DNA from: an uncultured Mycoplasmataceae bacterium
GTDB taxonomy: Bacteria > Bacillota_I > Bacilli_A > Mycoplasmatales > Mycoplasmoidaceae
Reading direction: 5' to 3'
Length of the DNA stretch: 64,000 nt
Assembly: GCA_947429165.1 (NCBI GenBank)
Contig: CANEON010000001.1
Location: 237,021 to 301,020, forward strand
Part shown: piece by piece, positions 53 to 38,941 of the stretch
Position numbering within the stretch: the stretch's first letter is position 1
How the letters are laid out: the number at the start of each line of letters is the position of its first letter
Notes under the pieces: generated by a model
Seen by the model: only the letters and a program-made list of their open reading frames with translations
Databases searched by the model: none
Told to the model about the DNA's origin: nothing
Made by a program: the position numbers and the translations under genes

Positions 53-1153
53 TTAGATATTTTTATTTTGTTGGTTTAATTTGGAATAAATTTTCTTACA
101 TCCAATAATAGAATACTTTTCAATATACATCATTGCAAGTCCAGAAAGAATAGAACATGCAAAAACAAGAATAGAATAAACTTCAAAAGTGTAAGGCATT
201 ATCATGTGTCGAAATATATAGCAAAATAAGCAATGAATTATGTAAATATAAAAACTAGATCTTCCTATAAAATTTATATATTTTGAATTAAATTTAAAAT
301 ATATATTTATCGTTAGGATATCAATAAGAGCAAGGGTAACCTCAAAAAAAATAATAATGTATATGATATGCAAAACAATACAAAAAAACCAAATTAGAAA
401 GAGCAATTAAAATTCATCCATATTTTCTAAGTATTGCGTTTATTCTTTCAAAATATATTGCATACAAAACACCCAGAGGAAAACATCATCAGCCTTTTAA
501 ATATGTATCTATAAAAATTTCTGTATATCTACCTAACAATAGAATTAAAAAATAATAAAGAACAGAGAAAACAACTAAATAGATTGGAAGGTCATCTTGT
601 TTCTTAAATTTAAATAATATTAAATATGTAACAGCACCGAAAAAGTAGTAAAAAAATATTTCATATAAAAACCAGTCGGCTTTATTTAAGTTGCTACCTA
701 AACTTAAACCAAATATTTTTAATATTGATGTTTGTGAAAAATTTGAAATATCTGTACTTGCAAAGAAATATATAAGATTAGTCAATACTAACCAAAAATA
801 CATCTTTGGAATCTTAAATAATAATATTTTTTTGCATATTTTTCACCATGTGTATGGAAATTCTTTACCAAACAAAAAGAAGAAAGAAATAAAAATATTC
901 CAACTCAAATTTGTGCAATAAATGTATTAAATTGGTATGTTGTTATTATGTGTTTATCAAAAAGTTCACCATTTTGTAGAATTTGATCACAAAGATGCGA
1001 AAAAACTATAAAAATGCACCCAAACCCCCTTAATGTATCTGTTTGTTTCTTATTAAAATAAACTTTATGGTGATAAACTTTATGGTGTTCTTTTTTTCTA
1101 TTTTTAATGCAAGAAAGAAAAGAAAAAATTAGAAAAAATAATACTAACAGCAT
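53..1153 (-). pseudogene. acyltransferase family 3 (membrane O-acyltransferase-like), reading frame broken twice
   Basis: Track ORFs 905-1153, 489-803 and 53-406 are consecutive hydrophobic pieces in different frames (end coordinate mod 3 = 1, 2, 1). N-terminal LRGFGCIFIVFSHL and C-terminal IGRSSFYIYIIHCLF resemble acyltransferase_3 motifs. The frame switches coincide with homopolymers (T7 827-833; A7 382-388 or A8 344-351). Confidence 0.55.
1058..1087 (-). repeat. perfect 15-bp tandem duplication (ataaactttatggtg x2) inside the acyltransferase N-terminus
   Basis: Read directly from the sequence. It encodes the duplicated HHKVY-HHKVY in track ORF 905-1153. Confidence 0.8.
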
Positions 1154-14542: not shown

Positions 14543-17500
14543 TTAACAAGTTATATAAAAGGTTTTGTAGTCACAGATTAATAAACCGTTTTGATCAGAA
14601 ATTACGTGTAATTTTCCACTCTTATCTCTAATTAACAATCCATATTGTAATTTTGGCTCGTCACTCATATTGTCGTTATGCAAAGTTCAAGTGCTGTGCT
14701 CAGCTATTTTTGGGTGATTCATTAAATAATCATCTAATCAAACATTTGGTTTCATGCTAAATTGAATTCCATCATCACCAATTTTAGTTATTTTAATTCC
14801 TCAATCATCTAAATTAACAGGAGTAAGCCCTGGTGCATATGTAATGTCATCTACATAGAATGACTTACCGGTGCTTGAATCTCTAACATTAATATGATAA
14901 AAGTTTAAGTATACAAACACATCTTCAGGTTGGGTATCAGCAGTGATTTCGTTACTAAATATGGTTATGCCGAATTCATCAGTGTCATTTTCTCCTAATG
15001 AAAAATCTCATTCTGGTTCCTCTGGTCCATTTAACTCTGTTCTTGTAGCAACATAAGGATCGTTTTCAGTAATATACAACTCTAAATCCATAGTTGCAAC
15101 AATTGAACTATCAACAGTTGAGGTAGCTTTTAAAGTGAAACGAATGTGGGTTGTGTTCGCAACAGCATTTCAAGAAAGAATGTTGTTTTCAATATATAAA
15201 ACATCTTCCACGTCTGGATTTAATATATCTCATTTAACATTTGTTGATGGGTTATTCCCTTGAGCTGAAACAGCTAATGCATTTTTGTATGATCCAGCCT
15301 TATTTTCAACACCTAAAATTTGGTTAGAACCAGGTCAGATAATAGAAATAGAAATTGGTTTAATTTCGATGTTCAATGCAAAATGTTTTACAGAACGAAT
15401 CTGAGTATTTTTTTTGCATGTAGCAACAACATCAAATGTTGCTCTTGTGTATGAACTTTGAGTAGAAATGGCGTTCCATGTTATTTGATTTGAACTATTA
15501 ATGGAAATTTCAACACCTGGCACACTAGTATTTTCTATAGATCAATTTACTTCATCGCTTGCATCAGAAGGGTGAAGAGTTGCAGAAAGTGTCTCGGTTG
15601 TTTTACCTGCTTTCCCTACTTCAGCACCATAAATTTCAGATATATCATTAACGTAATCTGTAGATCCTGTTCAGTTTATATCTAAACGTTCAACTGGAGG
15701 GTAATCTAAAACAAGAGTTATATCATTTCTTGTTTGAGAAATACTTCATTTTGCACTAGTTGCTTTAATTGATAATGTAATGTTTCCTGCTTTTGAAATA
15801 GGATTTCATACAATGTTTTTAGATACAGGATCAATTGATATTGAATTTGCAGGAGCAGATTCACCATCATCATAAGTAGCACTTATGATTGTTCATGTAG
15901 CATCATCTATTTCTTTTGATCCTTCAGGATTTGAAGAAACAGAAAGAGATTGACCTTGAGAATAACCTGATTTGTTGATTGTTCCATTTATAGATGTTGA
16001 ACCATTTCATTCTATTTGCATTCCAGTTGGGTCAGGACGATCAAGTACCAAAGTTAAATCTATTGTTCTAGAAATTGATGAATCTTCAATTGATGTAGCT
16101 TTTACTTTAAACGGATAAGTTCCTGGATTAGCAAAACTTGATCATTTTATACTTTTGTGTGTGTTAATCACTGAATCTACAAGCGAAATTGTCGGTCCGT
16201 TTTTAGGTTGTTCGATAATCGAAAAATCTACTTTTTGTTCAGCGTTATCTGGATGAATTTGCGCTACTAAAGGTTTTGAATAAGTCTCTTCTTTGTTTAT
16301 AAGACCATTAATTGTGGTAGCACCATCTTGTAGTCCTAAATCCATACTTGTTGGATTAGCAGTGTCAAAATCAATTTGAACATTGTTTTTTGTAACCGTT
16401 TTTGTTGATCCGTCTTCTCCTGTTCATGATGCTTTTACAACAAGCGGTGCAACATGTGGTCTAATTTCTTGAGTTTGTTTTTTAAATGTTCAACAAATTT
16501 GTTTTTGGTCATTAATAGATAAATCTAAATATTGTGAATATGTACTTCCTGAAGCGTGCTCCACAGTATAAGTTACATCTGCGGATGAATATGATGGTTT
16601 AAAAACACTGATTAAATGTCCAGATGATGAACCATTTTCATTAACTGTACCATTCATAATAATAGTTGAAGATGCATCAGAATTTTCACTTCAACCTATT
16701 ACGACATTTGTAGGTTTTGCCGTTTTAAAAGAAATTGAAAATTGAGCACTAGTTACTGTTAAAGATGGTGTTTTAGTAGAAGTTGCTTTTACTTTGAATG
16801 AAACTACATCAACAGATGAATCTGTTGGAACATCTCAACTAATTTGTTTAGAAGCATTAATGGTTACATTAGCATCAGATGACTTTTCTATAATATCGTA
16901 ATTGAAGTCTGCCGGATTAAAATCTGCATAAGTTGGATCAGGACTTACCGAAAATGATTCAGTTGTTGTTCCTGCAACTCCTTTTGTTCCTGAAATATTG
17001 TATTGACCATTTCAATTTAGTCTTATAGATTTTGGTTGAGGTTTATTTAAAGTTAATGAAAAGCCTGTTATATCTTTAGATAATGTTGTTCCTTCTACTT
17101 CTGCACGAACAGTGAATGTTAAGTTACTAATGGGGTGTTATTTTCATATTTCTTTCATTGTATTTTTCCCTCTGCAGAAACACTTAAAATTTGATCAACT
17201 AATGACTGTTGTGATGTATTTGTAGCTATAAGTTGATAATTAACTTTAGTGTTTGGATCAATGTATGAAGATGGCTCTACACTTGAGGTTAAATTTCCAA
17301 GACTTTCTCCAGCTTTATAAATTTCACCAACGTACGCTTTGTCAGAACCGTTGTAGCTAGCTGTTAAAGTTTCAGGTTGAGCATATCCAATATTTAATGT
17401 AAAAGACAAGTTTGCTGGTGGAACTGATCTATAACCTCTAAAATAAGCTGAAACGTAAAAATTGTATTGACCTTTAGCGTGTTGTGATCATTGAATTTTT

Positions 17501-18740
17501 CCTTCGTTTGTTACAGAAATTCATGATTTCATTTTTGTAGGCATTATTTGGTACGAAACATCATCTCCAGTTGCTATAGCATCTGTTGGTGTAACGGTCG
17601 GTTGTAATACACCGGTAGATTCTCCACCTTCTTTGTTACTTCCATATAATACTGTAGATCCTTCAGAATATGCTAAAGAGATTGATTGTGGATCAACCTT
17701 TTCTAGAACTAACGCGAATTGTTTAGAAGAAGATATGGAAGTGTTTTTATATTTAGCAGTAACAGTGAAAGAGTAAGTGCCTTCTGTCGATTTTGCATCT
17801 CAAGAAATTTGTCCATTCGTTACATGAATAAAGTCTTGTCCTGAAACAGATCATTCAACTTCTGGAGTTTTAGCATAACTAGGAGTAGGTGACGCAATTA
17901 AACTATCAATAGATGATTCAGCTTTATTTACTTTTCCATATAAAGCAATATCACCCATAGTGTACATTGGGTCTGTTCAAGTTAGATTTAATGCTGTTGG
18001 ATCAGGTTTATTTAGCTTTAATCTAAAATTTTGAATATCTCTTGCTCTGCCGTCCGCACTTGTTGCAGATAGTTTAAAATTAATTGTTTTCTCTGCTGAA
18101 ACAGATCTCCAAGCAATATATTGTTTTTCATTTATTGTCTTTAAATAAACAGCTGAATCTGTCGCATCATACAATTCATATGTAACATTTTGTTGGGCTT
18201 CTGTAGGTAAAACTGTTGCTGTTAAAGGTTTTGATTCATAATAACCTTCTTGATTTATATACCCACCAATTTCGTGAATTTGGTTTGTACCATCTCAATT
18301 TAACGAAACATTTGTAGCGTGAGCATAATCAATTAAAAGAATAAAATCTTTTGATGCTGATAATGATGGTTTAACTTTAGAGGTCGCAGTTACTGTAAAA
18401 TTAATTTTTTACCTTGATGACAAGTATTAGGAATTGTTGACCAACAAATACGATTATGTGAATCAACATTAAAACTTACATCTGTTGAAGTTGTAGTTAT
18501 TGCATAATTAACTTCTTGTGGTTTATCTGCTGGATAAACAGAAACACTTAATGGTTGAGCACTTCATGAACCAGAAGAAAGCAAATTACCTTTAATTTCT
18601 GTAGAACCCTCTCAATTAAATTTGATTTCAGTTGGGCCGTTGTCTTTTGATCCGCAAGATGTTGAAGTTAAAATAGCTGTTGAAGAGCCTAGAACAAACG
18701 CTCCTGCTGCCATCATTTTAATTATTTTTTTTGATTTCAT
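14543..18740 (-). pseudogene. giant surface lipoprotein with about 13 tandem Ig-like (Big_2-like) repeats, interrupted by two homopolymer frameshifts
   Basis: Start MKSKKIIKMMAAGAFVLGSSTAILTSTSCGSK (lipobox). Repeats of about 95-105 aa share the pattern ...G.I.W......G.Y.F.V.A.... Track ORFs 17977-18174 and 17155-17409 (frame 0) and 16142-16345 and 15335-15523 (frame 1) are all repeat units. The frame changes are pinned to T6 18405-18410 and G4 17132-17135. The protein ends ...KTFYITC*. Confidence 0.7.
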
Positions 18741-22073: not shown

Positions 22074-22781
22074 ATGTCAAAAAATCAAATGTTATATGAA
22101 GGTAAAGCAAAGAAAATTTTTGCTACAGATGTTGCTGATGAAGTAATCATTGAATATAAAGATGATGCAACAGCTGGCAATGGGGCAAAAAAAGGTACTA
22201 TCAGCAATAAAGGTATTTTAAATAACGCAATTACTACATTCATTTTTGAAATGCTAAAAGAACACGGCATCCCAACTCACTTTATTAAGAAATTAAATGA
22301 TCGTGATCAATTATGTAAAAAAGTAACTATCGTTCCATTAGAAGTAATTGTTAGAAATGTTGCTGCTGGAAGCATGGCTAAACGTTTGGGAATTGAAGAA
22401 GGAACTTCTTTAAAAACTCCCGTTCTTGAAATTTCTTACAAAAACGATGCATTAGGTGATCCATTAATTAACAATTACCATGCGGTTGCAATTGGAATAA
22501 CAACATTTGATGAATTAAATACTATTTATTCTTACACTAAAAAAATTAATGAATTACTAATTGAATTCTTTAAAAAACAAAACATTCGTCTTATTGACTT
22601 TAAGATTGAATTTGGAAAAGACAAAGATGGTAAAGTTTTGTTGGCTGACGAAATTTCTCCAGATACTTGTAGATTATGAGATCTTACAACTAATGAAAAA
22701 TTAGATAAAGATCGTTTTAGAAGAGATATGGGTAAGGTTGAAGAAGCTTACCAAGAAATTTTCAAAAGATTATCTAAATAA
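22074..22781 (+). CDS. purC: SAICAR synthetase
   Basis: YEGKAKKIF...LIDFKIEFG...[13 protein letters not shown]. The ORF continues across TGA at 22677-22679 to TAA at 22781. Confidence 0.93.
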
Positions 22782-22784
22782 TAT

Positions 22785-24200
22785 ATGAAGTTGTACGAAC
22801 ATACTTTTGATTTTGAATTAGACAAATTCAAAGATGAATGTGGTGTCTTTGGTGTCTATTCAAAATCTAACAAAAATAATGTTGCATTGTTAACCTACTA
22901 TGGTTTATTTGCTTTGCAACACCGTGGTCAAGAATCTGCAGGTATTGCTATAAGCAATGCTAAAAATGTTATATGTAAAAAAGGTCTTGGTTATGTTGGT
23001 GACGTTTTTACAAAAGACTTAATGCAACAATTATCAAAAGGCAATCCTAAAATTGCTATTGGTCATGTTCGTTATTCAACAGCTGGAAGTAAAACAGTTG
23101 AAAATGCTCAACCATTTGTTGTAAAAACTAAAGCTGGTTCAATTGCCGTTGCTCACAATGGTAATTTAGTTAATGCAAATTCTCTAAGAGAACAATATAA
23201 GAAAAAAGGTATGAAATTTGTTTCTTCTGTTGATTCAGAAGTAATTGCAAATATCATTGCACATAATCTTAAAAAAGAAAAAACAATTGAAGATGCAATC
23301 ATTAAAACAACTAAAGAAATTAGGGGTGCATATGCTTTAGTTGTATTAACTAAAGATAAATTAATCGGTTTAAGAGATCCTAATGGTATTAGACCATTAT
23401 GTTTAGGAAAATTATCAGACGGTTCATATATTCTTTCATCTGAAAGTTGTGCTTTTAGTTCAACTGGAGCTAAGTTTGTACAAGACATTAAAAAGGGTGA
23501 AATTATTACAATCACTAATAAATGTGTAAAAACAAAAACTTATAGCAATGCTCCAAAAAAATCTTGTATCTTTGAATATGTTTATTTTGCTAGACCTGAT
23601 TCTACAATTGATGGGATCAATTGTTATTTGTCTAGAATTGAACAAGGTAAATTACTATATAAGGAACATCCTTTAAAAGCTGATATGGTAATTGCCGCAC
23701 CAGAATCTGGAAATTATGCGGCTATGGGTTATTCTCAAGCTTCTAAAATTCCTTTTGGTATTGGTTTAATTAAAAATAGATATATTGCAAGAACTTTTAT
23801 TAAACCTACTCAAGAATTAAGAGAAAGAGATGTTTATATTAAATTAAATCCTCTTGAAATTAATGTTAAGGGTAAAAACTTAGTTTTAATTGATGACTCT
23901 ATTGTAAGAGGAACATCTTCTCTTCACTTTGTTAAGGCTCTTAAAAAAGCAGGAGCTAAGAAAGTATATTTCTTATCTGCTGCTCCAATGGTTAAATGAC
24001 CATGTTTCTTAGGGATTGATACTCCTAATAAAAAAGATTTAATGGCTGCAAATATGTCATTAAAACAAATGCAAAAGAAAATCGGTTGTGACTATTTAGG
24101 ATTCTTAAGCATTAAGAGCTTATATAAATGTTGTTTAAATAAAGATGAATATTGTGACGGATGTTTTACAGGAAAATATCCTGTTAACAAGGAAGAATAA
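22785..24200 (+). CDS. purF: amidophosphoribosyltransferase (propeptide + Cys nucleophile, Fe-S type C-terminus)
   Basis: ECGVFGVYS N-terminal nucleophile motif after a propeptide, PRTase motif LVLIDDSIVRGTS, and C-terminal CDGC cysteines. Joined across TGA at 23997. Confidence 0.93.
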
Positions 24201-24211
24201 GGAGAATAAAG

Positions 24212-25231
24212 ATGAAAAAGAAATTAACATATCAAAATAGTGGTGTAAATATTCATGAAGGCTATAAGTCTGTAAGTTTATTTAAACAACATACAAAGAA
24301 AACTATGAATAATTTAGTTCTAAACGGATTAGGTTCATTTGCTGGAATGTTAAAAATTCCAAGCTGATATAAAAAACCTATCTTAGTTTCTGGAACTGAT
24401 GGCGTAGGAACTAAAATTGCTATTGCATGTAAGAATAAGAAATATGATACAGTTGGTATTGATTGCGTAGCAATGTGTGTCAATGATGTTTTATGCCATG
24501 GTGCTAAACCTTTATTTTTCTTAGATTACATTGCTTGTGGAAAATTAGAAGCAAAAGTTGCTGCTGATTTAGTTAAAGGTGTAAGCGAAGGGTGTATACA
24601 GTCTGGTAGTGCTTTAATCGGTGGTGAAACCGCTGAAATGCCTGGTTTCTATAAAGCAGGAGATTATGACTTAGCAGGTTTCTCTGTTGGTATTGTTGAT
24701 CAAGACAAAATTATTAATGGTAAAAACATTAAAGCTGGTGATGCTTTAATCGGTATTGCTTCAAGCGGTTTCCATTCAAATGGTTATTCATTAGTAAGAA
24801 AAGTATTTACTAATATGAATGAATCATTCAAAGGTAAACCATTATGAAAAACTTTATTAACACCTACAAAAATTTATGTTAAACCTGTTCTTAATTTATT
24901 AAAAAAATACGAAATTAAGGGTATGGCTCACATTACTGGTGGAGGATTTATTGAAAATGCTCCTAGAATGTTGAAACCAAATTCTAACTTACAATTGGTT
25001 ATCGACACTAAGTCTTATCCATTGCCTGACATTTTTAAATTAATTAATAATCGTGGTGTTGAAAAATCACACATGTACAACACGTTCAACATGGGTATTG
25101 GATTCATGCTTTGTGTTAACAAAAAAGATGTTAAGAAAATTCTTAAAGACTTATCTTTAATGAAAGAAAAAGCATGAGAGATAGGTTATGTAGAATCTAA
25201 TAAAAAAGGTCAAACAATAAAGATCATTTAA
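24212..25231 (+). CDS. purM: AIR synthetase
   Basis: [35 protein letters not shown] and MAHITGGGF. Three track pieces are in frame across TGA. Confidence 0.93.
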
Positions 25232-25236
25232 TAAAT

Positions 25237-25266
25237 AAAAAAATCCGCTTAATTGCGGATTTTTTA
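25237..25266. terminator. bidirectional rho-independent terminator between purM and the convergent Ig-like gene
   Basis: aaaaaaatccgc-ttaatt-gcggattttttt: 8-bp GC-containing stem flanked by an A-run and a T-run. Confidence 0.6.
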
Positions 25267-28200
25267 TTAACATGTAACATTGACAGCTGGCGCTAATACG
25301 AATTGTTGATTTTCCGGTGTAACAAATTTATAAATTATGTTATTGTTTGAAATGCCAAAAGTAAATTTAACATCATTCTCACCCATCATAGAATCAGCTC
25401 ATCATCCGTCTCCTTCTTTTTTGAAAACTTCATCGTCTAAAGCTCTGCGAAAACTTATGTTTATAGTAATCGAAGATGTAGATCTATCATAGTTATATGT
25501 TATATCTAAAAATTCATCAATTAATAGCGACCCGTCTCTACCGTTTTTTGTTCACTTGTAATCTGTTTTTTTGACTTGATCTGCAGCATTTCTTAATTGT
25601 ATACCGGTTCAAGTCATCTCCACAACAATTTGTGAATTGTCATCATAGTTAATGTTATCCCCTGTTAGTGTTAATGTGTATTCTGAATACTCCCAAGTCG
25701 GTTCTCCTCTGTGTATGTATATAGCATTCGTAATGTTGTCATTTTCAAAATATTCTTCTGTGTAATTGGTTACAGAAGGTTGATTACCATCAACAAAAAT
25801 AACTGTTAATGTTAATGAATCTGTTATTGATTCGTCAACTGCAGATTTTGCAGTAATTGTAATTGCTGCTTCGCTTGTTGCACCACTATATGCAGATCAA
25901 GATAGAACACCATTTGATGAACCTATATTAAACAAATCAGGAACAAGTGGACATTCTAGAGACCATTCAACTTTTTTAAATTCATCTGATGCTGTACCTT
26001 CGGTTTTTACACTAAACGGAACTAAATATTCTCCTTCGACATTTTTTTGAATATAAAGCACATCACTTCCAGTTCAATTTATCTTAATAGCAGTTAGTCT
26101 TTCTTGAATAGTTAATGAGAAACATTTTGATGCAGAAATTCCATATTTTCTAGATGTTACATTAACAGTGAATTCATAATTATCACATTTACTTGTGCCT
26201 GGTCATTTAATTTTTCTTTGTGCGCTGTCAAATTCTACCACACTACCAGATTGACTAATACTTCATGTAAGATCACTGTAATCGGTTGGAATGTCTATAG
26301 GATCAAATGATGCAGATAGAACATCTGAACTACCTTCTGTACCGACAACACCTGTCAAGTTTGTCTCTCCATCATAATCTATTGATAGTGATGTTGGTGT
26401 TAAAGCTGCCAATGTTAATGTAAATATATCTGAATCAATATTAATTCCTGTTGATGCGCTTGTTGCATTAATTTTAAATGTTACTATAGTTTCATCAATT
26501 GAATCCATATATGATTTTCATTGAATTTGTCTAGATTGGTTTACAAAAACCAAATCTGAAGATGTTAAAACGCCATTAATTCTTAATTCTTTTACTCTAT
26601 ATACAACATCTGATACAGTTTCAGTATATGATGGTGTTATTAATGAAATTGCTTGTGTAGAAGTTCCTGCTTCTCTAACTTTTCCTGAAAGCGAAGTGCT
26701 TATTGAGTTAAATTCTACATCATCTAAATTCGGATCAACATTCGGTTTTTTAAGCACAAGTGTTATAACAGATGATGAAGCTCAATCTACTGTTGAACCT
26801 GTAGCGGTTGGCTTAGCTTGAATTTTAAATCTAAGGGTTAATTGTTGGTTTTCGTTGCATGATCAAGTTAAATTATTTCCTGATACAGCAAGTGACACGT
26901 TTGATACTTCTCTATTTAAGTCAACATCTCAAAATCTAGTTTGGAATCCTTGGTCTGCATATTGAGAATTAACCTTTATATTAACTCCAGAAGCTTGACC
27001 GTTTCTGTGGATGTATCCTTCAATTTGAGAGGCTCCATTTCATTCACAAGTAATTGATTCTGGTAAAGGTTGTTTTAAGTTTAAAGTAATTGTTTTTGGT
27101 GAACTTGATACATCACCACATTTACCGACAACCGTAATTGTGCCAGTAGTAGCGCTAGTAATGTTTGTTGCATCTCAAGATAATATACCAGTGGTTTGGT
27201 TAATTGAAACATTTGCTGTTGCCAAAGAACTACTAGCTGTAACAACGAATTTTCTTTCTCCTATAGCATAAGATGGAGTTACTCCTAAAGTAAACGGTTT
27301 ATCTAATGAGCCAGTTTTTGAATAATCTGCATTGATTGTTGTTGCGCCGTTATATATAAGATCAACAGAACTTGCTGCTGCACCTTGCATAGATAAAGTG
27401 AAATGTAATGAATTACTTTCAACATTAGATGCTTTTGCAATTACATCAAATTCAACTGCTGAATTATCTCCTAAATCAGAAGCATAAATAGCTGGTCACG
27501 AAATTTTACCATCAGCAGTTATATTAATTTGCTTAGAAATATTTAGATTTTTAATTTCATAAGATGTTGTTATTCCTGGGTCTACGTCTGTAGGATTAAT
27601 TTGGTAAGAAAGGGCTTGAGTTGTTGTACCAGATTCACCTTCAGTTATAGTAAAGTTCTTCTCTCCAGGATAACTTAATGTTATATTTTGAATTGGATTG
27701 TAAGCGATAACTAGAGTAACGTTTTTCTGTTCACTAATAATATCTGTATCCTTTATCTTAGCAGATACACTAAAACTGTATGTCCCTACAGCGCTATGTG
27801 CTTTTCAATTAATGTATCCATCTGAATCAACAGATATTCAATCACTATAGTTTGTAACAATGTATTCAACTTCTAAGTTTGGAGAATAGTTTGATCCTTG
27901 TATTTGATATGAAAATTTATTAGTAGATTTTCCAGATTTATTGATAAAACCTTTAGTAGTAATAGGTGTGGTGCCATCTCATGAGATCGAAATGCCAGTC
28001 GGTTGTTCGTAGTGAGTTTCATATATAAAACTTACAGTATTTGCAGCACGAATTTCAGGCATTTCTTTAATACGTGCCACTATCCAAAAATCAACTCTTC
28101 CTTCGGTAGGACGAGATTTAAATTTAAGTTTATTATCTGAAGTAAGTTCAACATAATCTTTGATATTGCTAGTGTTTGATTGTATTATGAATTCAACATG

Positions 28201-29415
28201 TAAGTCAGGGGAACAATCAGCAGCATTTTTTATTACACCAGTACAATATCCTTCTGATGTTTTTTCTGTATTTACTGGTAAATCAAATGTACAACCTTCT
28301 GATGATGGTTTGTTTCAAGTTCATTCTATCCCTGTCGGTTGTTGATAATTTAATGAAAGAGTAAATGTTTTGGTAGCTTGTAAATTAAATTGATCACATT
28401 CAGCTTTAATTGTAAAACTGTAATTTTGGATATATGAATGTGAATCTCACGATATAACGCCATTGTTAACACGAATAAAACTTGCAGCATCACCCATAAC
28501 ACTTCATCTAATAGAGTCTGCAACTGGTTGTTTTGCATAACTTGGGCTAGAAACTAACGTTAGTCTGTTTGTATCAGATCCAGCTTTATTAATAGACCCA
28601 GTTAAACTAGTTGAAGTTCCTGAATAATTAATTTGTATAGATTGTGGTTGTGGAAGATCTAGAGTTAATTGAAAATATTCCTTATCTGTCATTCCACTAT
28701 CTGTGTGTGTTGCAACAACTTGGAAAGTAACAACTTTTTTTACAGAAGAGTTAACAGCGTTTCAACCAACATATTTTTTTCCGTTTTTTTCAACGATTTT
28801 AACTATCCCAGTTTCACTTTCACTACCAGAAAGTATATTTATAGTTGAACTTTGGTCAGCATCGGCTGGTAAAATCTCTGTTTCTAGAGCTTGTGCTTCG
28901 TAAACACCAGCTTGATGAACAAAACCTGATATTTTGTGAACTCCTTTTTCTGGTCACTTTAAATCAAAGGTTGTTGGGCTTGGTTTGTGGAGATTTAAGA
29001 TAAATGATAGTGTTTCAGACTTTACATCTGGATAATTAACTGAATATGCGTATACATCAAAATGAATAATTAAATTTGGGTCGCTTGGAAGTTTACTTCA
29101 AGAAATAATTCCGTCATCATTTACACTAAATTTAACATTTACATTTTCAAGAACATCAAAATGATAGGTAACATTCTTATCAACATCCCCTTCTCCATCT
29201 ATATTGCATATTAAATGACCATATTGGTAATTACCTTCTCTATTAATTGTTCCTGGTAACTTTTTTTCTTGTGATCCGCTTCACGATAAATCAATTTTTG
29301 ATGGTTTTGTTAATTTTGAACCAACTAATGTAGAATAGATAATTCCACCAACAGCAACACTCATAACAAGAGTAATGCTTGATATTCATCCGACTAATTT
29401 TTTTCAATTTTTCAT
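25267..29415 (-). CDS. giant (1382 aa) membrane-anchored surface protein with about 12 tandem Ig-like (Big_2-like) repeats
   Basis: Start MKNWKKLVGWISSITLVMSVAVGGIIYSTLVG (signal anchor, no lipobox). Track ORFs 28504-28692, 27175-27390, 26518-26757 and 26263-26508 are all in the start frame. Same repeat pattern as 14543-18740. Ends ...APAVNVTC*. Confidence 0.75.
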
Positions 29416-29467
29416 ATTCATTTTCCTCAATATATATAACACTATAACACTATTTTTTAAAGGGGAC

Positions 29468-29496
29468 AAAAAAATCCACATTTAGTGGATTTTTGT
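29468..29496 (-). terminator. rho-independent terminator after the YiiX-like lipoprotein gene
   Basis: aaaaatccac-attta-gtggattttt hairpin followed by a T-run on the minus strand. Confidence 0.55.
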
Positions 29497-29509
29497 TTTG
29501 CTGTTTTAA

Positions 29510-30784
29510 TTACTTAAGGAAGTTTCAGCCAATAATTGCTTTTGCATTATTGTAGTAAAGAATTTCTCAAGGTAAAATTCCCGGAATGTCAGCTGCATAG
29601 TAATCATTAGATTGAATATCAATACCTTGATTCATGTAACCTGCTCATACTAATTCTGAACAATATCAAGCGCCAGCATCTGCATCTACATCTTCACTTA
29701 AGAAAATAGGAATATTGTAATTTTTACCTAATTGTGATTCACAGAATTGTGTTGCAGCTTCTATTTGTTCGTCGCTTGCATCACTAATGCGAAGAACTGT
29801 CATTTGATCTTTAACCATTCTTACATCATCTAATAAACCATATGAAACACCAAATTGGTTAGCTTCAACAACACGTAAATATTGAACTACTTAATCTGTT
29901 CCTTGAACTTTTGCATTGTATCATCCATCAACAATAGCACAGTGTCCAGAGTAGTGACCACCTAAAGCAAAGCCTTGAGCAGAGAATACTACATCACCAC
30001 GTTTAACGTTATCTCATGCATATTTATTTGTATATGTTGGGGTATCTAATAATTCATATGTACCTTGAATTCTTTCACCATTTTTGTGGTTAAAGTCTAA
30101 TCCAGTATAGTAAGTGTCACTATATACACTGAAAATTAATTCTCAAGCTTTTTCTTTAGCTTGTTCACCTTCACCAAATAATGGGTATAAGATTCCTTCA
30201 AAAATATCTTGTAATGATCAGTTGTTCTTAGCATATTTTTCTAAATCTATTTGTTTAGTTAAAATGCCTTCTCACAAATTAATAAAGTGATTAATTTTTT
30301 CTTCACCAAACAAGAATTGAACAAATTGGTTTTCGCATACTTTATTAATAGCATTCATGATGTCATCATGAAATAAAACAAGAACTTCTTGAAAAATTTC
30401 TAATGGATCTTGTCATTCTTCAACATCTGGAGTTTTTGAAGTGATTGTTTGTAAAACGGGTTTAATATTTTGTTCAAGTAAATTAAACAATTGTTGAGCA
30501 TATCCTTTGTATACTTGGGGAACATTTCTATTAGCAGAAATAACTTCTACAAGTTGAGCAGCTACAGTTTCAAATTGGTCTGCCATTTTCATAACAACAT
30601 CTTTTACGTCGTATGGTTTGTAATCAGTAACACTTTTTTTGTTAGCAAAATTACTATTCAAAACTACTTGTTTGTTTTGATCATTAGTTGTTTTGCTGTA
30701 ATTAATAGCAGTAGCAGGAATTGCTGCTGCAATACCTAATCCGCAAGATGCTAAAAGAATACTTTTAAAGATTTTTTTATTCAT
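29510..30784 (-). pseudogene. lipoprotein with C-terminal permuted papain-like amidase (YaeF/YiiX, C92-like) domain, interrupted by an in-frame TAA
   Basis: MNKKIFKSILLASCGLG lipobox. The C-terminal region GDVVFSAQ...GHCAIVDG...VVEANQFGVSYG...QLGKNYNIPIF...WYCSELVWAGY matches the YiiX-type order of motifs. In-frame TAA at 29891-29893, checked codon by codon; 126 codons follow in the same frame to TAA at 29510. Confidence 0.65.
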
Positions 30785-30910
30785 ATTATTTCCTCTCTTT
30801 TGTATTTCTACTCTTATATTAACACTAATTCGAAAAAATAAAGTAACTTTTATTATTTTTTTATTACTTCTTATAACTTATAAATATTATTTATAATTTA
30901 TCTATTAACA

Positions 30911-31507
30911 ATGAAAAATATTGCAGTTTTTGTCTCTGGTGGTGGAACTAATTTACAAGCAACCATCAATGACGCTAAGAAATCTAAATTTTATAAAGTT
31001 TCATTAGTAATTTCTAATAAAGATAATGCTTATGGGCTAGTTAGAGCTAAAAAGGCTAACATACCTAATATATGTATAAAAAGCAAAGATGTATCGAAAA
31101 TATTAACAACATTATCTAAATATAAGATTGATTACATTGTATTGGCTGGTTACTTAGCAATAGTGGATCCTAAAATTATTAAAAAATATCCAAACAAGAT
31201 TTTAAATATCCACCCTTCATTAATTCCTTCTTTCTGTGGTCCGGGCATGTATGGAATTCATGTGCATGAAGCAGTAATTAAATCTGGAGTTAAAACGAGT
31301 GGATGCACAACTCACTTTGTAAACGAAAGGGTTGATGGTGGTGCAATAATTATGCAAAAAACAGTCCCTGTATATTATGAAGACACACCTGAAATTCTTC
31401 AAAAACGAATATTAAAATATGAACATCAAATATTGGTTAAATCAATCAACTTGTTAGTAACAAATAAATTAAAGGTAATAAACGGAAGGACAAAAGTATT
31501 AAAGTAA
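30911..31507 (+). CDS. purN: GAR formyltransferase
   Basis: 198 aa with [14 protein letters not shown]...[12 protein letters not shown]....HEA... motifs. Confidence 0.92.
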
Positions 31508-31509
31508 TT

Positions 31510-33015
31510 ATGAAAAAAAGAGCATTAATAAGTGTATTCAAAAAAGATAAAGTATTAGAACTTGCAAAGTTCTTAATTTCTCATGATGTTGAAGTTGTTT
31601 CAACTGGTGGAACTTTTAAATATTTAAAAGAAAACAATGTACCGGTAACAGAAATTAGTGACATTACTAATTTCCCCGAAATGTTAGATGGTAGAGTAAA
31701 AACTTTACATCCTAATGTTCATGGCGGAATTTTAGCCATTAGAGATAACAAGCAACATATGAACACAGTTAATAAACATAATATTGGTTTAATTGATTAT
31801 GTTGTTGTTAACTTATATCCTTTCTTTGAAAAAGTTAAGGAAAACTTAACTTTTGAACAAAAAGTTGAGTTTATTGATATCGGTGGCCCAACCATGTTAA
31901 GATCTGCAGCCAAAAACTTTAAAGATGTAACTGTTATTTGTGATCCTGATGATTACGAATTAGTAATGAATGAAATCGCTAACAATGGATCAACTTCAAT
32001 TGAAACAAGACAAATGTTAGCATCTAAGGTATTTAATTTAACAACTGCATATGATGCAGCTATTTGCAATTTCTTATCTAAAGACGAATTCCCTAAATAT
32101 CTTTCTGTTTCATATGTTAAGAAGCAACCTCTAAGATATGGTGAAAACCCTCATCAATCTGCTTGCTTCTACGAAGATACCGTAAGAAAAGGAGCGATGA
32201 ATAGTTTTGAAATTCTTAACGGTAAACAACTATCATATAACAATTTCAAGGATGTTGATATTGCTTGAAAATCAGTTTGTGAATTTGAACCAAGTGAATA
32301 TGCGTGTTGTGCATTAAAACACAATACCCCTTGTGGTTTTGCTATTGGTTCATCTGTATATGATTCATATATGAAAGCATATAATGTTGACTCTACTTCA
32401 ATCTTTGGTGGTATTGTTGCATTCAATAACACCGTTACAGCAGATGTTGCTACAGAAATGTCTAAAATCTTTTTAGAAGTAATTTGTGCTCCTGAATATG
32501 AACCAGAAGCTCTTGAAATTTTAAGAAAGAAAAAGAATTTAAGAGTTCTTAAATTTCACTCTAAACCAACTAACACTCATGCTTATATTAGTGTTGATGG
32601 TGGAATTATGGTTCAAAGTGAAGACTTAAATTCAAAAGAAGAATACAAAGTTGTAACTAAACTAGCACCAACTGAAGAACAATTGAAAAATCTTAAGTTT
32701 GCTATGAAAGTAGTTAAATACGTTAAATCAAATGCTATTGTTGTTGCAAATAATGGTGTTGCTTGTGGTATTGGTGGTGGACAAGTTAATAGAATTTGAC
32801 CAACTCAAGATGCTCTAAGACGTGGTAAGGGTGCAACCGTATTAGCATCTGATGCTTTCTTCCCATTTAGAGACGTTGTTGATACATGTGCTAAATACGG
32901 AATTAAGGCAATTATCCAACCAGGCGGTTCATTAAGAGACCAAGAATCAATTGATGCATGTAATGAACACGGTATTGCAATGATATTTACAGGAGTAAGA
33001 CACTTTAAACACTAA
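31510..33015 (+). CDS. purH: bifunctional AICAR formyltransferase / IMP cyclohydrolase
   Basis: [13 protein letters not shown]...STGGT...[14 protein letters not shown] and C-terminal [11 protein letters not shown]. Pieces are in frame across TGA at 32266 and 32797. Confidence 0.93.
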
Positions 33016-33017
33016 TT

Positions 33018-34265
33018 ATGAAAATATTATTAATAGGATCAGGCGGTCGTGAACATGCATTAGCATGGAAGATGGCCCAAAATAAAAAAGTTACAAAAAT
33101 TTATGTTGCTCCAGGAAATGCTGGGACAGCTACAGAAAATAAATGTGAGAATGTAGCTTTACATTCTAACAGCGAATATGTTAAGTTTGCTAAAGCAAAC
33201 AAAATTGATTTAACTGTTGTTGGCCCTGAAGTTCCGTTAGTAGATGGAGTGGTAGATTTATTTAAGAAAAATAAGTTAAAAATCTTTGGACCAAATAAAA
33301 AAGCAGCTCAATTAGAAGGTAGTAAAGTTTTTGCAAAGAAATTTATGCAAAAACACAATATTCCTACTGCAAAGTTTGGTAGTTTTACAAATCCAAAATC
33401 TGCTATTAAATATTTAAAAGAGAAATGCGATTTTCCAATAGTTATTAAAGCTGATGGACTAGCAGCTGGTAAAGGTGTAGAGATTTGTCCTAATTTAAAA
33501 TCGGCTATCAACTGTATTAATGAATTTATGGTTAAAAATATCTTTAAAACAGCAGGTAGTAAAGTTGTTATTGAAGAATTCTTAGAAGGGCCAGAAGCTT
33601 CTATTATTTGTATTACTGATGGTAATACAATATATCCTTTTATTTCTTCAAAAGATCATAAACAAGTATTTGATAACGATAAAGGTCCTAATACTGGTGG
33701 TATGGGCGCCATATGTCCAAACCCTTATGTAACAAAATCTGTTTTGAACGATTTTGTCAAACAAATAATGTTACCAACATTAAATGGTCTTAAAAAAGAC
33801 AAGATTGATTTTATGGGTTTTATTTTCTTTGGAATTATGATTACAAAGAAAGGACCTAAACTTCTTGAATACAATGTAAGAATGGGCGATCCTGAAACAG
33901 AATCTATTTTACCATTGCTTAAGAATGATTTAGTTGATGTATTTAATAAAGCGCTAAGTAAAAAATTAAAAGATGTTAAATTATCTTGAGAAAAGAAAGC
34001 ATCAATTAATGTTGTTTTATGTTCTAAAGGTTATCCAAAAAAAGCAGAAACAGGAAAAGAGATTAAGATTAAAAAATTAAAAAATTCTAAAATTTTCTTT
34101 GCAGGTACTAAACTTGAAAATAAAAAACTAATCACAAGTGGAGGAAGAGTTTTATCTGTTGTTTCTACAGGAAAAACTTTATCTGAAGCTACAAAAAAAG
34201 TTTATGCTGACATTAAGAACATAAACTTTTTTGGAATGCATTATCGTAAAGATATTGATAAATAA
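33018..34265 (+). CDS. purD: GAR synthetase
   Basis: MKILLIGSGGREHALAWK...VIKADGLAAGKGV...NVRMGDPETE. Continues across TGA at 33987 to TAA at 34265. Confidence 0.93.
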
Positions 34266-34345: not shown

Positions 34346-36300
34346 TTAGGACTTAGCAGTTCAATCGTTGTCGTTTATGAAACTACATTTTTCTTTAAGT
34401 CAATCTAATAAATTTTGTGAACTAACTGAGCTATTTAAAGATTCAACTTTTCCTGTTGTTGCATTTTCATTAAAACATCATCGAGAATTAATCGTTACTG
34501 CGAAAGAAGAAGGTATATCTCAAGCAATATAGTTCAATAACGGATTTTCACTAAATGCAAAACCACCAATATAATTTAATTTTCTTGGAAGAATTACAGA
34601 GGTTAATGATTGATTTTCCGAAAAGGAATAACTACCAATTGATGTTAAATTAACACAATTTGACAAATCAGCAGAAATTAATCCTGTACGCATAAAAGAA
34701 TAATCATCAAGTGATGTTAAACTTTGTGGAAGATTTATAGTTTTCAATGAGGTACAATCAGTAAAAACAAAAGAATGAATCGTTTTTAAATTATTAGGTA
34801 ATTTAACATCGGATAATAACGTACATCCTGAGAAGGCGTGTGTATAAATTGCAGTTAAATTATTACAATTTGATAAATCAACAGAAGCTAATGAAGTGCA
34901 TGAGTCAAATGCATATTGCCCAGTAATTTCAGTGAAACTACTTGGAAATATTACAGAAGTTAGAGACTGGCATTTATAGAAAGCGTATCCACCAATTGTA
35001 GAACAAACTGAACCTTCGGCAAAAGTTAATTTTGTAATAAATGATGGAATAGTTGATTCTCAATTTTTATAAAAAGCACCATCATCAATACTTGTAACAT
35101 TTGCTGGGATTTCCATTGTGTCAGATAATCTATATGCACTTGGATTGGCTAAAAATCCAGCAGTAAATCCTTTTAATACATTGTTTTCAATAATATAAAC
35201 ATCATCTGGTAATTCAGGATCTGGTAATCAACTTTCTGGCAATCCACCATTATTTACTAAATATTGAAGTAAATCTACACCATCATATTCACTAGAGCTG
35301 GTTACGACAACTGTTCCTTTAGAAGAAACACGTAAGAAAGAAGAATTAACTAGACTAGTGTTGCCATCTCAAGCATCTCATGTAATACTATTTAAATTAG
35401 GGCAATCTGAAAAAGTGTTATAACTTAAAGATGTCAAACTACTTGGTAAAGATATTGAAGTTAATGAGTTACAAAATCTAAAAGCTTGTTGTCCAATTGA
35501 AGTTAAATTAATTGCATTTTCAAGATCAACAGAAGTTGATAATAGTGGACAATGACTAAAAGCTGAATTTTTAATTTTGGTTAAACCTGTGCATTCTGAA
35601 AAGTTGACAGAAGTTAATTGGTCACAATAGGTAAAAGCTTGTGCTCCGATTATTTTTAAACTACTTGGTAAAGTTACTGAACTTAATGTTGAACAATTAC
35701 CAAAAGCAAAACCATTAATTGAATCTAAAATAGCACAATTTGATAAGTTAGCTGAAGATAATTTTATGCACGCAGTAAAAGCATCTTCACCAATTGAAGT
35801 CAACTTAATTGCATTTGAAAAATCAACTGAAGTTAATGTAGAACATTCTTCAAAAGCAGAATCTTGAATTGTTATTAAAGCACTTGGTAATTTTACAGAA
35901 GTTAATGAAGATGATCTGAATGTATCATTACCAATTGAAGAACAATTAGACCCATCAGCAAAAGTTAATTTTGTAATAAATGATGGAATAGTTGTCTTGT
36001 ATTCTGTATCATCATAAAAAGCAAACCCATTAATACTTGTTACATTAGCTGGGATTTGCATAGTGTCACACATGTCATAAGCAGTTGGATTAGCCAAAAA
36101 TTCTTTAGTGAAACCCATCAAAACATTGTTTTCAATAATGTAAACACTTTTTGGCAAAACATTTGGATCAACCGGTTCATCTCCACCATTTTTTTCTAAA
36201 ACAGAATAAATTATTCCGCCTACGCCAACTGCAAGTGTAGCTATTATTCCACTACATAATACAATCAAATTTAGTAATTTCTTGTTTAACTTTTTTTCAT
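34346..36300 (-). CDS. BspA-type leucine-rich-repeat surface protein with internal two-module duplication; the ATG is out of frame (A7 tract)
   Basis: Track ORFs 35378-36268 and 34520-34747 share a frame, and I walked the whole stretch codon by codon across TGA. There are two modules, each starting VYIIENNVL.GFT..FLANP.AY...M.IPANVTSI followed by LRR_5-like repeats (C.SLTSV.LPSSL..IG..AF). ATG(36300)+A7 hits TAA after 4 codons; A8 would give MKKKLNKKLLNLIVLCSG.... The only in-frame start as read is the TTG at 36268. Confidence 0.75.
36291..36297 (-). repeat. poly(A)7 tract (T7 on + strand) immediately after the start codon of the LRR gene
   Basis: Counted in the block tttttttcat (36291-36300). 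Confidence 0.75.
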
Positions 36301-36371: not shown

Positions 36372-37535
36372 TTATTTGTGTGATTTTTTTCAACAATTTG
36401 CTACAGCTTTTGCTACAGCTTTAGGCACAGCCATATCTAATGCTGATGGAAGAATATAGTTTTTATTTAATTGACTTGGTTTTACCAATTTAGCAATTGC
36501 CTTTGCTGCAGTAATTTTCATTTCATCTGTAATTTGTTTTGCGCCCGCATCAAGAGCACCTCTAAAGATTCCAGGGAAAACCATAACATTGTTAATTTGA
36601 TTAGGGAAATCACTTCTTCCTGTCCCCATAACTTCAACACCTGCTTTAAGTGCAACATCTGGCATAATTTCGGGAATAGGATTTGCCATCGCTAACACGA
36701 TTGGCTTTTTATTCATTCCTTTAATCATCTCAGGCTTTAAGACGTTACCTGCAGAAACACCAATAAAAATATCTGCACCTTTTAATGCATCAGTTAAAGT
36801 ACCTTTAACTTTTTTCTTATTAGTAATTTTTGCCAATTGTTTTTGGTAAATGTTTATCTTTTTATCATTTGGATTTAAAATTCCTGTTCTATTACAGAAG
36901 ATAAGATTTCCTATACCCATTTTTAGTAATAATTTACCAATAGCCATACCAGCAGCACCAGGACCATTAATAACTGCGGTAACTTTGCCCATATCCTTTT
37001 TAACAACTTTTAAAGCATTGATAATTGCTGCAGCAACAATAATTGCAGTACCATGTTGATCATCGTGAAAAATTGGAATATCACACATTGCTTTTAATTT
37101 GTCTTCAATTTCAATACATCTTGGACTAGCAATGTCTTCTAAATTAATACCACCAAATGAACCTGATAGTAAATAAATTGTTTTTACAATGTCATCAACA
37201 CTCTTAGATTTAATACATAATGGAACCGCATTTACATTTGCAAATCTTTTAAACAATGCGCATTTACCTTCCATAACAGGCATACCAGCTTCTGGGCCAA
37301 TATCACCTAATCCTAATACTGCTGTACCATCAGTAACAACAGCAATAGTGTTTTTTCTTCATGTTAAGTCATAAGACTTTTTAATATCTTTTTGAATAGC
37401 TAAACAAGGAGCAGCAACTCCTGGTGTATATGCTAAAGCAAGATCTTGTTTGTTGTTAATTGGCGCTTTACAAACAATATCAATTTTTCCTTTTCATTTA
37501 GCATGTAATTCTAATGATTTTTTACCGTAATCCAT
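36372..37535 (-). CDS. NAD(P)-dependent malic enzyme (short form)
   Basis: The N-terminus read to the ATG at 37535 is MDYGKKSLELHAKWKGKI.... Motifs: VVTDGTAVLGLGDIGPEAGMPVMEGKCALFK and INGPGAAGMAIG (Rossmann). Tail read across TGA to TAA at 36372. Confidence 0.85.
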
Positions 37536-37554: not shown

Positions 37555-38928
37555 TTAAACCATTTTTTTTGGGTCTACGATCTTAATAAATTCTCGATCA
37601 GGAATTATATTAAGATGTCTATTTGCTTCTCTTAATGTTACTTTATGTTTATATGCATATTTAGAAATAGCAGCAGACTTTTCATAACCTATTGCATCTT
37701 TAAGTTGAGTGACTAGCATTAATGAATTATTAACTAATTCACTCATACGATCTTCGTTAACTGTAATTCCAGAAACACAATGAATATTAAAACTATTAAT
37801 CATATCTGATAACAATGTTACAGAAGTAATGAAATCTTGAATCAGGTAAGTACCAAAAGTATTTAATTCGAAATTTCCTTGAGATGCTAAAAACGCAATA
37901 GATGAGTCATATCCAAATACATTAATGCACATCATTGCCATACCTTCACATTGTGTTGGGTTTACTTTACCCGGCATAATTGAACTTCCTGGCTCGTTTT
38001 GTGGAATGTTGATTTCACCAAACCCAGATCTTGGTCCAGAAGCTAAGAATCTAATATCTTGTGCAATTTTATATAAATCCATTGCTAAGGCTTTAATTGC
38101 GCCGTGTGCATATGCTATTGTTCCTTTCGATCAAGAAGCATAATATTTATTGCCAACAACTTTAAACTTTTTTGTATTTAATATCTTGTTAATTTCATTA
38201 ACACAATAGTGATCATAGTTATGCTTTGGTGCTGTACATCCAGAACCAATTGCAGTACCACCACAATTTAAATAATATTGTGTTTCAATTGCCTGTTTAG
38301 CGTTTTTTAAATCAGTTTCAATTGCAAATCTTCAGCCACTAACTTCTTGACCAAAAGTTAAAGGAACAGCATCTTGAATGTGTGTTCTACCTAACTTGAC
38401 AACATTTGCATATTTTTTTTCTAGTTTTTTAAAACTGTTAATTAATCCTTCTGCAGCAGGAACTAAGTATTTATTAAATACATAGATTGCAGTCATATTT
38501 GTTGATGATGTATATGAATCATTTGTAGATTGAGACATATTAGCATCATCATTTGGATGAATCATCTTTTTCTTTGCAATTTGGTTGGCGCGATGAGCAA
38601 TAACTTCGTTAATGTTCATATTTGTTTGCGTACCACTACCAGCTTGAAAAGCTTTTGTAGGGAAGTGTTTGTCTAATTTACCTTCTCAAATTTCTTTACA
38701 AACTTTATATATCAAGTCAGCTTTTTGCTTAGGCATCTTTTTACATTTGTAGTTTGCAATAGCACATGCAGCTTTTAAAACTGCTAGTTGATGAATTAAA
38801 TCAAGACTAACTATTTCATGGCCAATTTTAAAGTTTTGTAAACTTCTTTGGGTTTGTGGCCCTCACAATGCCCAATTTGGTACTTCAATTTTTCCTAATG
38901 AATCTTTTTCGATATGACATTTTTTCAT
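37555..38928 (-). CDS. class II fumarase/aspartase-superfamily lyase, divergent paralogue
   Basis: [17 protein letters not shown]-loop and GRTHIQDAVPLTFGQE. The second conserved block reads SQSTNDSYTSSTN instead of [13 protein letters not shown]. ORFs 38332-38619 and 37555-38082 are in frame. ATG at 38928. Confidence 0.8.
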
Positions 38929-38941
38929 AATCATTTAATCT

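Follow-up and report, generated by a model that had tools for sequence, protein, structure and literature searches.

Can a mollicute make its purines from small precursors, when the group is described as living by purine salvage? The question is raised by a 64,000-nucleotide stretch of DNA (hereafter the window) from an uncultured Mycoplasmataceae bacterium, placed in the Mycoplasmoidaceae by GTDB (assembly GCA_947429165.1, contig CANEON010000001.1, positions 237,021 to 301,020 of the forward strand), which carries six genes of de novo purine biosynthesis (pur genes) between positions 22074 and 34265. An earlier note on this DNA had thought even a partial pathway unexpected because mollicutes are regarded as purine auxotrophs, and this is still the position of the literature: in papers from 2024-2026, mollicutes are said to be without de novo nucleotide synthesis (PMC10928387, PMC13328217), and Mycoplasma and Ureaplasma appear in a 2026 review among the organisms that have none of the de novo nucleotide genes (PMC13328217). 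No report of pur genes in mollicutes using translation table 4 (code 4, in which TGA encodes Trp) was found in the literature searched. We consider it likely that the window genes are two pieces, purCFM and purNHD, of a long-resident, Clostridium-type de novo purine operon in an uncultured Mycoplasmoidaceae lineage, and that the pathway is probably complete. Each Pur enzyme is a canonical member of its family; it is the host lineage that is unusual.

Six pur genes read with TGA as tryptophan

Translated with table 11, region 22074-34265 falls into fragments; with table 4, it resolves into six tightly packed open reading frames (ORFs) on the + strand, whose products are given with their lengths in amino acids (aa), their family scores and the family cut-offs:

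22074-22781, + strand: purC, phosphoribosylaminoimidazole-succinocarboxamide (SAICAR) synthetase, step 7; 235 aa; TIGR00081, 253 bits (cut-off 190)
22785-24200, + strand: purF, glutamine-phosphoribosyl pyrophosphate (PRPP) amidotransferase, step 1; 471 aa; TIGR01134, 494 bits (cut-off 350)
24212-25231, + strand: purM, aminoimidazole ribonucleotide (AIR) synthetase, step 5; 339 aa; TIGR00878, 437 bits (cut-off 236)
30911-31507, + strand: purN, glycinamide ribonucleotide (GAR) formyltransferase, step 3; 198 aa; TIGR00639, 179 bits (cut-off 150)
31510-33015, + strand: purH, aminoimidazole carboxamide ribonucleotide (AICAR) formyltransferase and inosine monophosphate (IMP) cyclohydrolase, steps 9 and 10; 501 aa; NF002049, 707 bits (cut-off 402)
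33018-34265, + strand: purD, GAR synthetase, step 2; 415 aa; TIGR00877, 537 bits (cut-off 288)

The earlier note had read these as six full-length genes with their signature motifs, and this reading stands. All six are intact under table 4, their catalytic motifs are present, and every whole-protein score is above the curated threshold set for its NCBIfam equivalog model, over the full length, the best-scoring stretch spanning nearly the whole protein and the whole profile in each case. The best PDB match of PurC, 3NUA (361 bits), is presumably the C. perfringens enzyme, and the next entries (284 and 250 bits) are ones that we take to be from Bacilli. The best structural match of PurF is the B. 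subtilis enzyme (1AO0), to which it can be aligned over the whole length. Cys19 falls on Cys1 of mature 1AO0, and hence the protein has an 18-residue propeptide whose cleavage is predicted; the nucleophile and phosphoribosyltransferase loop named in the earlier note are thus both in place. All four Cys ligands of the [4Fe-4S] cluster (including the positions at SCIFEY, WPCFLG and CDGC) and the PRPP loop DDSIVRGT are kept, and on these features PurF is assigned to the N-terminal-nucleophile (Ntn) amidotransferases of the B. subtilis [4Fe-4S] class with an N-terminal propeptide.

In-frame TGA codons had been reported at 22679, 23999, 24847, 25177, 32268, 32799 and 33989, with none in purN. All seven are correct, and one more was missing from that list, at 24365-24367 (purM aa 52). 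The single TGA of purC (aa 202) is aligned to Trp both in L084, a related mollicute locus, and in L096, a Clostridium-type locus that uses table 11; purM has three such codons (aa 52, 212 and 322), purH has two and purN zero. As anticipated from their Trp-like positions, 6 of the 8 TGA codons in the window pur genes lie on a Trp of the table-11 clostridial homologue, as do 10 of 15 when purL and purE (described below) are added to make eight pur genes, and across these eight genes 11 of 12 Trp residues of the homologue are also Trp here. TGA is therefore read as Trp. The code extends beyond the pur genes, as the whole window under table 4 gives long, closely spaced ORFs, and all of its listed genes stop at TAA or TAG only (TAA in all six pur genes). 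The pur genes are also as AT-rich as their neighbours, as previously noted, with a GC content of 29-32% against 29-35% and, at third codon positions (GC3), of 14-21% against 13-23%.

Proteins identical to those of the window were found on a 369,700-bp metagenome contig (ENA ERZ14499241 NODE_2), on which the window occupies positions 249,324-313,323; the stretch of this genome that was read amounts to ~87 kb (contig positions 226,230-313,323). Cluster mates at ≥90% identity are named 'MAG: Mycoplasmoidaceae bacterium' at NCBI (MAG, metagenome-assembled genome). The relative L087 has an EF-Tu that is 99.5% identical to that of the contig, and its best matches are ribosome entries of the 7PAJ family, which we take to be Mycoplasma pneumoniae. 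The upstream flank of the contig carries two Myco_protease genes and a class B RNase P RNA, and DUF3196 and DUF5385 genes are present in related loci. The genome is that of a TGA=Trp mollicute, and these names, matches and genes point indirectly to the family Mycoplasmoidaceae.

The rest of the window is ordinary chromosome, with pstSCAB-phoU, an ftsK-like gene, RNase J, recR-ybaB, pepF, uvrA, uvrB, rplK-rplA and glycosyltransferases. The junctions between the glycosyltransferase gene and purC and between purM and a surface-protein gene are identical in three independent assemblies, that of the window and two further ones, and a chimera is therefore ruled out. Contamination and very recent transfer, against which the earlier note had argued from composition, are excluded by the native composition together with the same junctions among housekeeping genes in the three assemblies.

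Deposited proteins of sister MAGs (MDE6477588.1, MDE7434041.1) are cut at TGA codons; their PurF of 404 aa is exactly the table-11 ORF (window 22785-23999). A 111-aa 'PurQ' deposited for a sister MAG is a piece of the 1249-aa PurL. Table 11 was apparently used to annotate the sister MAGs, fragmenting their proteomes.

The remaining steps and the transcription units

Steps 4, 6 and 8 are absent from the window, as the earlier note had said, and its description of a partial pathway holds there. For the contig it is too modest: with the purL and purE found there, nine of the ten reactions that lead from PRPP to IMP are covered (steps 1-7 and 9-10), and only purB is unaccounted for. The search beyond the window that the note had proposed has thus recovered purL and purE from the same contig but neither purB nor purK from the ~87 kb. 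With PurE of L084 as a probe, a subgroup of 149-aa PurE proteins was retrieved, the cluster members including PurE P0297 and the 1249-aa PurL P0306. Locus L093, on the same 369,700-bp contig, has purL at 236,230-239,979 (1249 aa, single-chain) and purE at 239,979-240,428 (149 aa), and its 3' end overlaps window positions 57-656, which ties the two genes to the contig. purE ends 8.9 kb before the start of the window and 31 kb upstream of purC.

PurE classes are distinguished by the 40s loop, with SAHR in class I and SAHK in class II. PurE of L093 has the motif ILSAHRVPE, and its best PDB matches (1O4V, 2YWX, 3ORS and 1QCZ) are mutases of N5-carboxyaminoimidazole ribonucleotide (N5-CAIR), so that it is assigned to class I, the N5-CAIR mutases. 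The same flank carries tuf and the PRPP synthetase gene prs, the latter 7 kb downstream of purE. A pyrimidine operon, pyrB-pyrC-pyrK-pyrD, lies divergently just upstream of purL-purE (L093 1-3365, contig 226,230-229,594) and is longer in relatives, where pyrF and pyrE are added (e.g., L087 1-5612); carA and carB were not seen within the L093 and L087 stretches read.

The spacers inside each pur unit are only 2-11 nt long and have ribosome-binding sites of the AGGAG type; an AGGAG site is also present in the 73-nt spacer upstream of purC. Three further features separate the units:

25238-25265, no strand assigned: palindromic hairpin with A-runs and T-runs on its flanks, a bidirectional intrinsic terminator (11-bp stem, 4 GC pairs, then a T-run)
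25267-30784, - strand: 5.5-kb insert splitting the former pur operon, with a surface-protein gene and a lipoprotein gene
30785-30910, + strand: AT-rich spacer of 126 nt upstream of purN

The terminator is predicted to end both the purCFM unit and the convergent surface-protein gene, and because it follows purM, purCFM and purNHD would be separate units. From this terminator and the divergent orientation of the genes we infer that the promoter of purNHD must lie in spacer 30785-30910. L086 has a shorter form of the insert, and L084 and L096 are without it. As for the third unit, the 240-nt leader of purL (L093 9760-10000) folds better than shuffled controls (z = -4.0) and has a hairpin with a T-run ~60 nt before purL. 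As a regulatory element it was rejected: the leader is identical in L094 and is not conserved in L087, where a 108-aa ORF stands in its place, and only the last ~60 nt are conserved.

These data would fit an ancestral operon purL-purE-purC-purF-purM-purN-purH-purD that was cut by rearrangements and inserted surface-protein genes into three transcription units, namely purL-purE (31 kb upstream of purC), purCFM (running to the bidirectional terminator) and purNHD (with its own upstream spacer). In the proposed pathway, prs would supply PRPP, and PurF, PurD, PurN, the single-chain PurL and PurM would catalyze steps 1, 2, 3, 4 and 5, respectively. Class-I PurE would carry out step 6 without PurK, through non-enzymatic formation of N5-CAIR in a CO2-rich habitat, followed by PurC at step 7 and PurH at steps 9 and 10. 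Step 8 would be left to a PurB that is probably encoded elsewhere in the genome, as a purA-purB pair is common in mollicutes. A complete pathway of this kind would probably make the lineage a purine prototroph.

Distribution, selection and rival explanations

Is the cluster a peculiarity of one genome? Within the window group, which is known from metagenomes only, PurH proteins are 83-95% identical, and L086 has the layout of the window. L087-L089 have purL-purE beside the pyr operon. More distant is the L084 type (74% PurH identity, 27% GC, seen in 289 blocks of the collection), which has an unbroken operon, purL (1274 aa)-purE-purC-purF-[TM2 gene]-purM-purN-purH-purD; the genes are also contiguous in L085, and neither L084 nor L085 uses TGG at all. 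In L095, which is of a 'Mycoplasmataceae bacterium' MAG type that, to judge by its accession, may come from termite gut, purM-purN, purH and purC lie apart from one another, interspersed with rpsT, fmt and aspS, and in L092, another MAG of that type, purE is next to suf genes. The pur genes are therefore present in at least two other code-4 mollicute lineages (L084 type and L095 type) besides the window group, and the cluster is a lineage trait that is common in uncultured relatives, not a one-off. This bears on the novelty that the earlier note would have surrendered had close relatives carried the cluster: uncultured relatives commonly do, but no cultured or named mollicute with a pur cluster was found, nor a paper describing one.

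The pur genes are under purifying selection. Against L086 (84% PurH identity), the proportions of nonsynonymous and synonymous differences are 0.06-0.16 (pN) and 0.53-0.64 (pS) for purF, purM, purN, purH and purD, and the ratio of nonsynonymous to synonymous rates (dN/dS) is 0.06-0.12 (purM, 0.08; purD, 0.06), a rough figure, as dS is near saturation (0.9-1.5). For purL and purE against L087, dN/dS is 0.03-0.04 at a dS of 0.5-0.6. Between mollicute lineages, Pur proteins are 49-78% identical, and RecR (59%), YbaB (55%), Pst proteins (54-71%) and PhoU (44%) are in the same range; hence, the pur genes are probably older than the lineage split.

Several results count against our preferred reading of a long-resident and probably complete pathway of clostridial origin, in addition to the near-saturation just mentioned. 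The data on the mollicute pur genes all come from metagenome assemblies. The consensus promoter scan made no call in spacer 30785-30910. No riboswitch or other regulatory RNA was found; in the window and six related loci, RNase P and signal recognition particle (SRP) RNA alone reached the Rfam gathering threshold, and sensitive scans stayed at chance level. purK was not seen in the window, L093 or the loci of relatives; the clostridial-type operon is also without purK, and class-I PurE without PurK has been documented in organisms of CO2-rich habitats and is workable at high CO2 (PMC3261824). A PurH neighbour-joining tree (100 bootstraps) does not nest the mollicutes in the sampled Clostridium clade and, with bootstrap values of 38-64%, does not resolve the relationships among the mollicute lineages or whether they are monophyletic. 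Finally, purB was not found by a six-frame scan for the lyase signature over contig positions 226,230-313,323 and all of the relatives' loci. A profile built from eight PurB proteins, obtained as described below, returned mostly consensus-like PurBs of Erysipelotrichaceae, Alistipes and segmented filamentous bacteria and did not retrieve a purB of the lineage.

The eight PurBs were obtained with a DNA probe specific for code 4, consisting of MPHKxNP, 26 aa and then the TGA-coded W of WHERDISH, a spacing that was verified. The probe led to 11 metagenome loci of TGA=Trp organisms with purA-purB(-hpt), none of which could be linked to the window lineage, its contig or its samples. In the window and the mollicute loci, the lyase-signature scan gave two FumC-type genes only, and these lie with a third gene beyond purD, on which all three converge:

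36372-37535, - strand: malic enzyme, by NCBIfam score; also found after purD in L086
37555-38934 and 38942-40309, - strand: two tandem class-II fumarase paralogues, by NCBIfam scores, with FumC as best PDB matches

The two fumarase paralogues are 46% identical to each other and both score below the FumC equivalog cut-off; paralogue 37555-38934 has HPNDDANMSQSTND in place of the conserved FumC substrate motif. As candidates for PurB both were rejected, as the catalytic His of GRTH and the conserved loop are kept and FumC structures are matched end to end. Were a canonical purB truly absent, paralogue 37555-38934, which adjoins the malic enzyme gene and converges on purD in L086 as well as in the window, could have taken over the SAICAR/adenylosuccinate lyase activity as a non-orthologous replacement from within the fumarase/aspartase superfamily and so complete the pathway, a suggestion that we regard as very improbable. 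Together, the malic enzyme and fumarases could route PurB-derived fumarate to pyruvate.

If purB is truly missing, the pathway is unable to reach AICAR. The genes would then be a remnant that makes no IMP from PRPP, either in slow decay or kept for side functions, such as conversion of salvaged AICAR (ZMP) to IMP by PurH or a formyl-folate balance involving PurN and PurH. The failure to find purB in the ~87 kb examined and in all relatives' loci, or to retrieve it by searches, would be expected of such a remnant, as would an operon broken up by insertions, and mollicutes are generally reductive (PMC10928387). What is difficult to reconcile with it is that the pur genes beyond purH are intact and under strong purifying selection, that pur genes are kept in at least three diverged lineages, and that PurF, D, N, L, M, E and C are without known use unless flux reaches AICAR. 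Moreover, the search for purB covered no more than about a tenth of what a mollicute genome typically holds, and purA-purB is widespread in code-4 mollicutes. We therefore consider a remnant to be quite improbable. An artefact of assembly or binning, in which pur genes of a co-occurring Clostridium-like organism were joined to mollicute DNA, might be invoked for the high identity of the Pur proteins to Clostridium proteins and for data that are all metagenomic. However, in-frame TGA at conserved Trp positions would truncate the genes in a code-11 organism, their GC3 is like that of neighbours, mollicute housekeeping genes stand on both sides of them on a single 369.7-kb contig, and the same junctions recur in three independent assemblies and in related species; such an artefact has next to no probability.

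The history of the operon is a separate matter from its function. Among named proteins, those of Clostridium and Fusobacterium come nearest to PurH and PurE (70-72%). For PurH, identity is 70-75% to the Clostridium-type and L084 proteins and only 45-50% to those of other Bacillota; for PurF, relatives in GTDB are ≤49% identical among the matches listed (rumen and gut Treponema, Clostridia). The operon probably came from Clostridiaceae-like bacteria by an old transfer and was then fully recoded; that mollicute PurH is not nested in the sampled Clostridium clade keeps this origin an inference. Alternatively, the operon might have been inherited from the Bacillota ancestor that gave rise to Mollicutes, every cultured lineage having since lost it, which would give the same function another history. 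The tree is compatible with this, Pur divergence tracks housekeeping divergence between mollicute lineages, and recoding and composition are fully native. Against this, the operon is of the Clostridium and not the Bacillus type, with a single-chain PurL and with purS, purQ, purK and purB not in the cluster; PurC is far closer to 3NUA than to structures from Bacilli; PurH is divided by the identities given above; and many independent losses across Mollicutes would be required. Vertical retention is thus unlikely, although it has a real share of the probability.

Neighbouring genes and known systems

The insert between purM and purN consists of two genes:

25267-29481, - strand: repeat-rich surface protein of 1404 aa (table-4 ORF)
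29510-30784, - strand: Peptidase_C92 lipoprotein gene (Pfam family)

The 1404-aa surface protein varies between assemblies: in L001 it is 1382 aa long, L002 has it in two pieces of 264 + 1096 aa, and L086 lacks it. The protein has paralogues in the window, and the proteins encoded at 25267-29481, 14543-16657, 17119-18174 and 18390-18740 are 26-35% identical over 80-460 aa. This family looks like that of a variable surface-antigen locus. Between the window and ENA contig L001, one base differs in 21.4 kb, position 29893, which reads A in the window but C in L001. With the A, a TAA stop arises at 29891-29893 and splits the 424-aa Peptidase_C92 gene into ORFs of 297 aa and 102 aa; the gene is intact in L001, L002 and L086.

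Beyond purD, a 640-aa leucine-rich-repeat protein is encoded at 34346-36268 (- strand), both halves of which open with near-identical segments (VYIIENNVL.GFT..FLANP.AY). Genes for LRR_5 proteins are likewise found after purD in L084 and at the flanks of L087. BspA-like proteins with leucine-rich repeats occur in host-associated mollicutes. About 1 kb upstream of the window start are a small SRP RNA (L093 22103-22197, + strand) and the class B RNase P RNA (L093 22773-23118, - strand); across the 64-kb window itself there was no tRNA or Rfam gathering-level match. Among the loci found with the purB probe, in organisms unrelated to the window lineage, purA-purB of L101 and L104 adjoins a Cas9-like gene (1086 aa, starting MNEKKKVNIGLDIG). 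Carbamate-kinase-like genes lie near purA-purB in the L101/L104 group, and L105 has further genes like those of the arginine deiminase pathway. These Cas9-like, carbamate-kinase-like and arginine-deiminase-like calls rest on ORF starts and one weak BLAST match.

The loss of nucleotide biosynthesis is usually illustrated with mollicutes, and minimal-cell models, culture media and some drug ideas assume purine salvage. That a purine pathway so nearly complete is conserved and under selection here, beside a pyrimidine pathway, contradicts this textbook generalisation. Some uncultured, probably gut-associated mycoplasmas may not depend on nucleotides from their host or community, and purine-free media might help to isolate them. 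The locus may be, in addition, a case in which a reduced genome whose genetic code had already changed won back a long multi-gene pathway, the acquired genes then being recoded to TGA=Trp. Truncation of deposited annotations at TGA, as in the sister MAGs, hides such pathways from automated metabolic surveys.

Of known systems, the Clostridium-type operon of L096 is the closest in organization. L096 uses table 11 and has endospore-appendage genes; its operon has the order purL(1249)-E-C-F-M-N-H-D, and its proteins are 54-73% identical to those of the window lineage. The nearest named proteins to this type of operon are from Clostridium uliginosum, C. perfringens and C. thermobutyricum. It shares its gene order with the L084 operon, its single-chain 1249-aa PurL with the window lineage, and with both a class-I PurE and the lack of purK and purB in the operon. 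The window lineage differs from it in reading TGA as Trp, in its mollicute-like GC3 and in having the genes in three units over 63 kb through rearrangement and inserted surface-protein genes. The B. subtilis operon has the order purEKBCSQLFMNHD. The core order C...F-M-N-H-D and a PurF of the propeptide and [4Fe-4S] type are common to both systems, whereas the mollicute cluster is without purK, purB, purS and purQ, its PurL is one large chain, and no guanine riboswitch was detected at any of the mollicute pur loci.

Within the Mycoplasmoidaceae there is a partial precedent, as a de novo pyrimidine operon has reportedly been described for Malacoplasma penetrans. The window contig likewise has a pyr operon (pyrB-pyrC-pyrK-pyrD), but the precedent covers pyrimidines only; the presence of this operon in the family means that it is less reduced in nucleotide metabolism than the Mycoplasma stereotype. 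The last comparison is with mollicute purine salvage (hpt/apt and the purA-purB purine nucleotide cycle), which belongs to the same host class and is represented here by the purA-purB(-hpt) units of the 11 TGA=Trp loci and by a gene for a 184-aa phosphoribosyltransferase, probably hpt, near purH in L095. Salvage is the only purine route described for mollicutes (PMC10928387, PMC13328217), and to it the window lineage adds a de novo route from PRPP.

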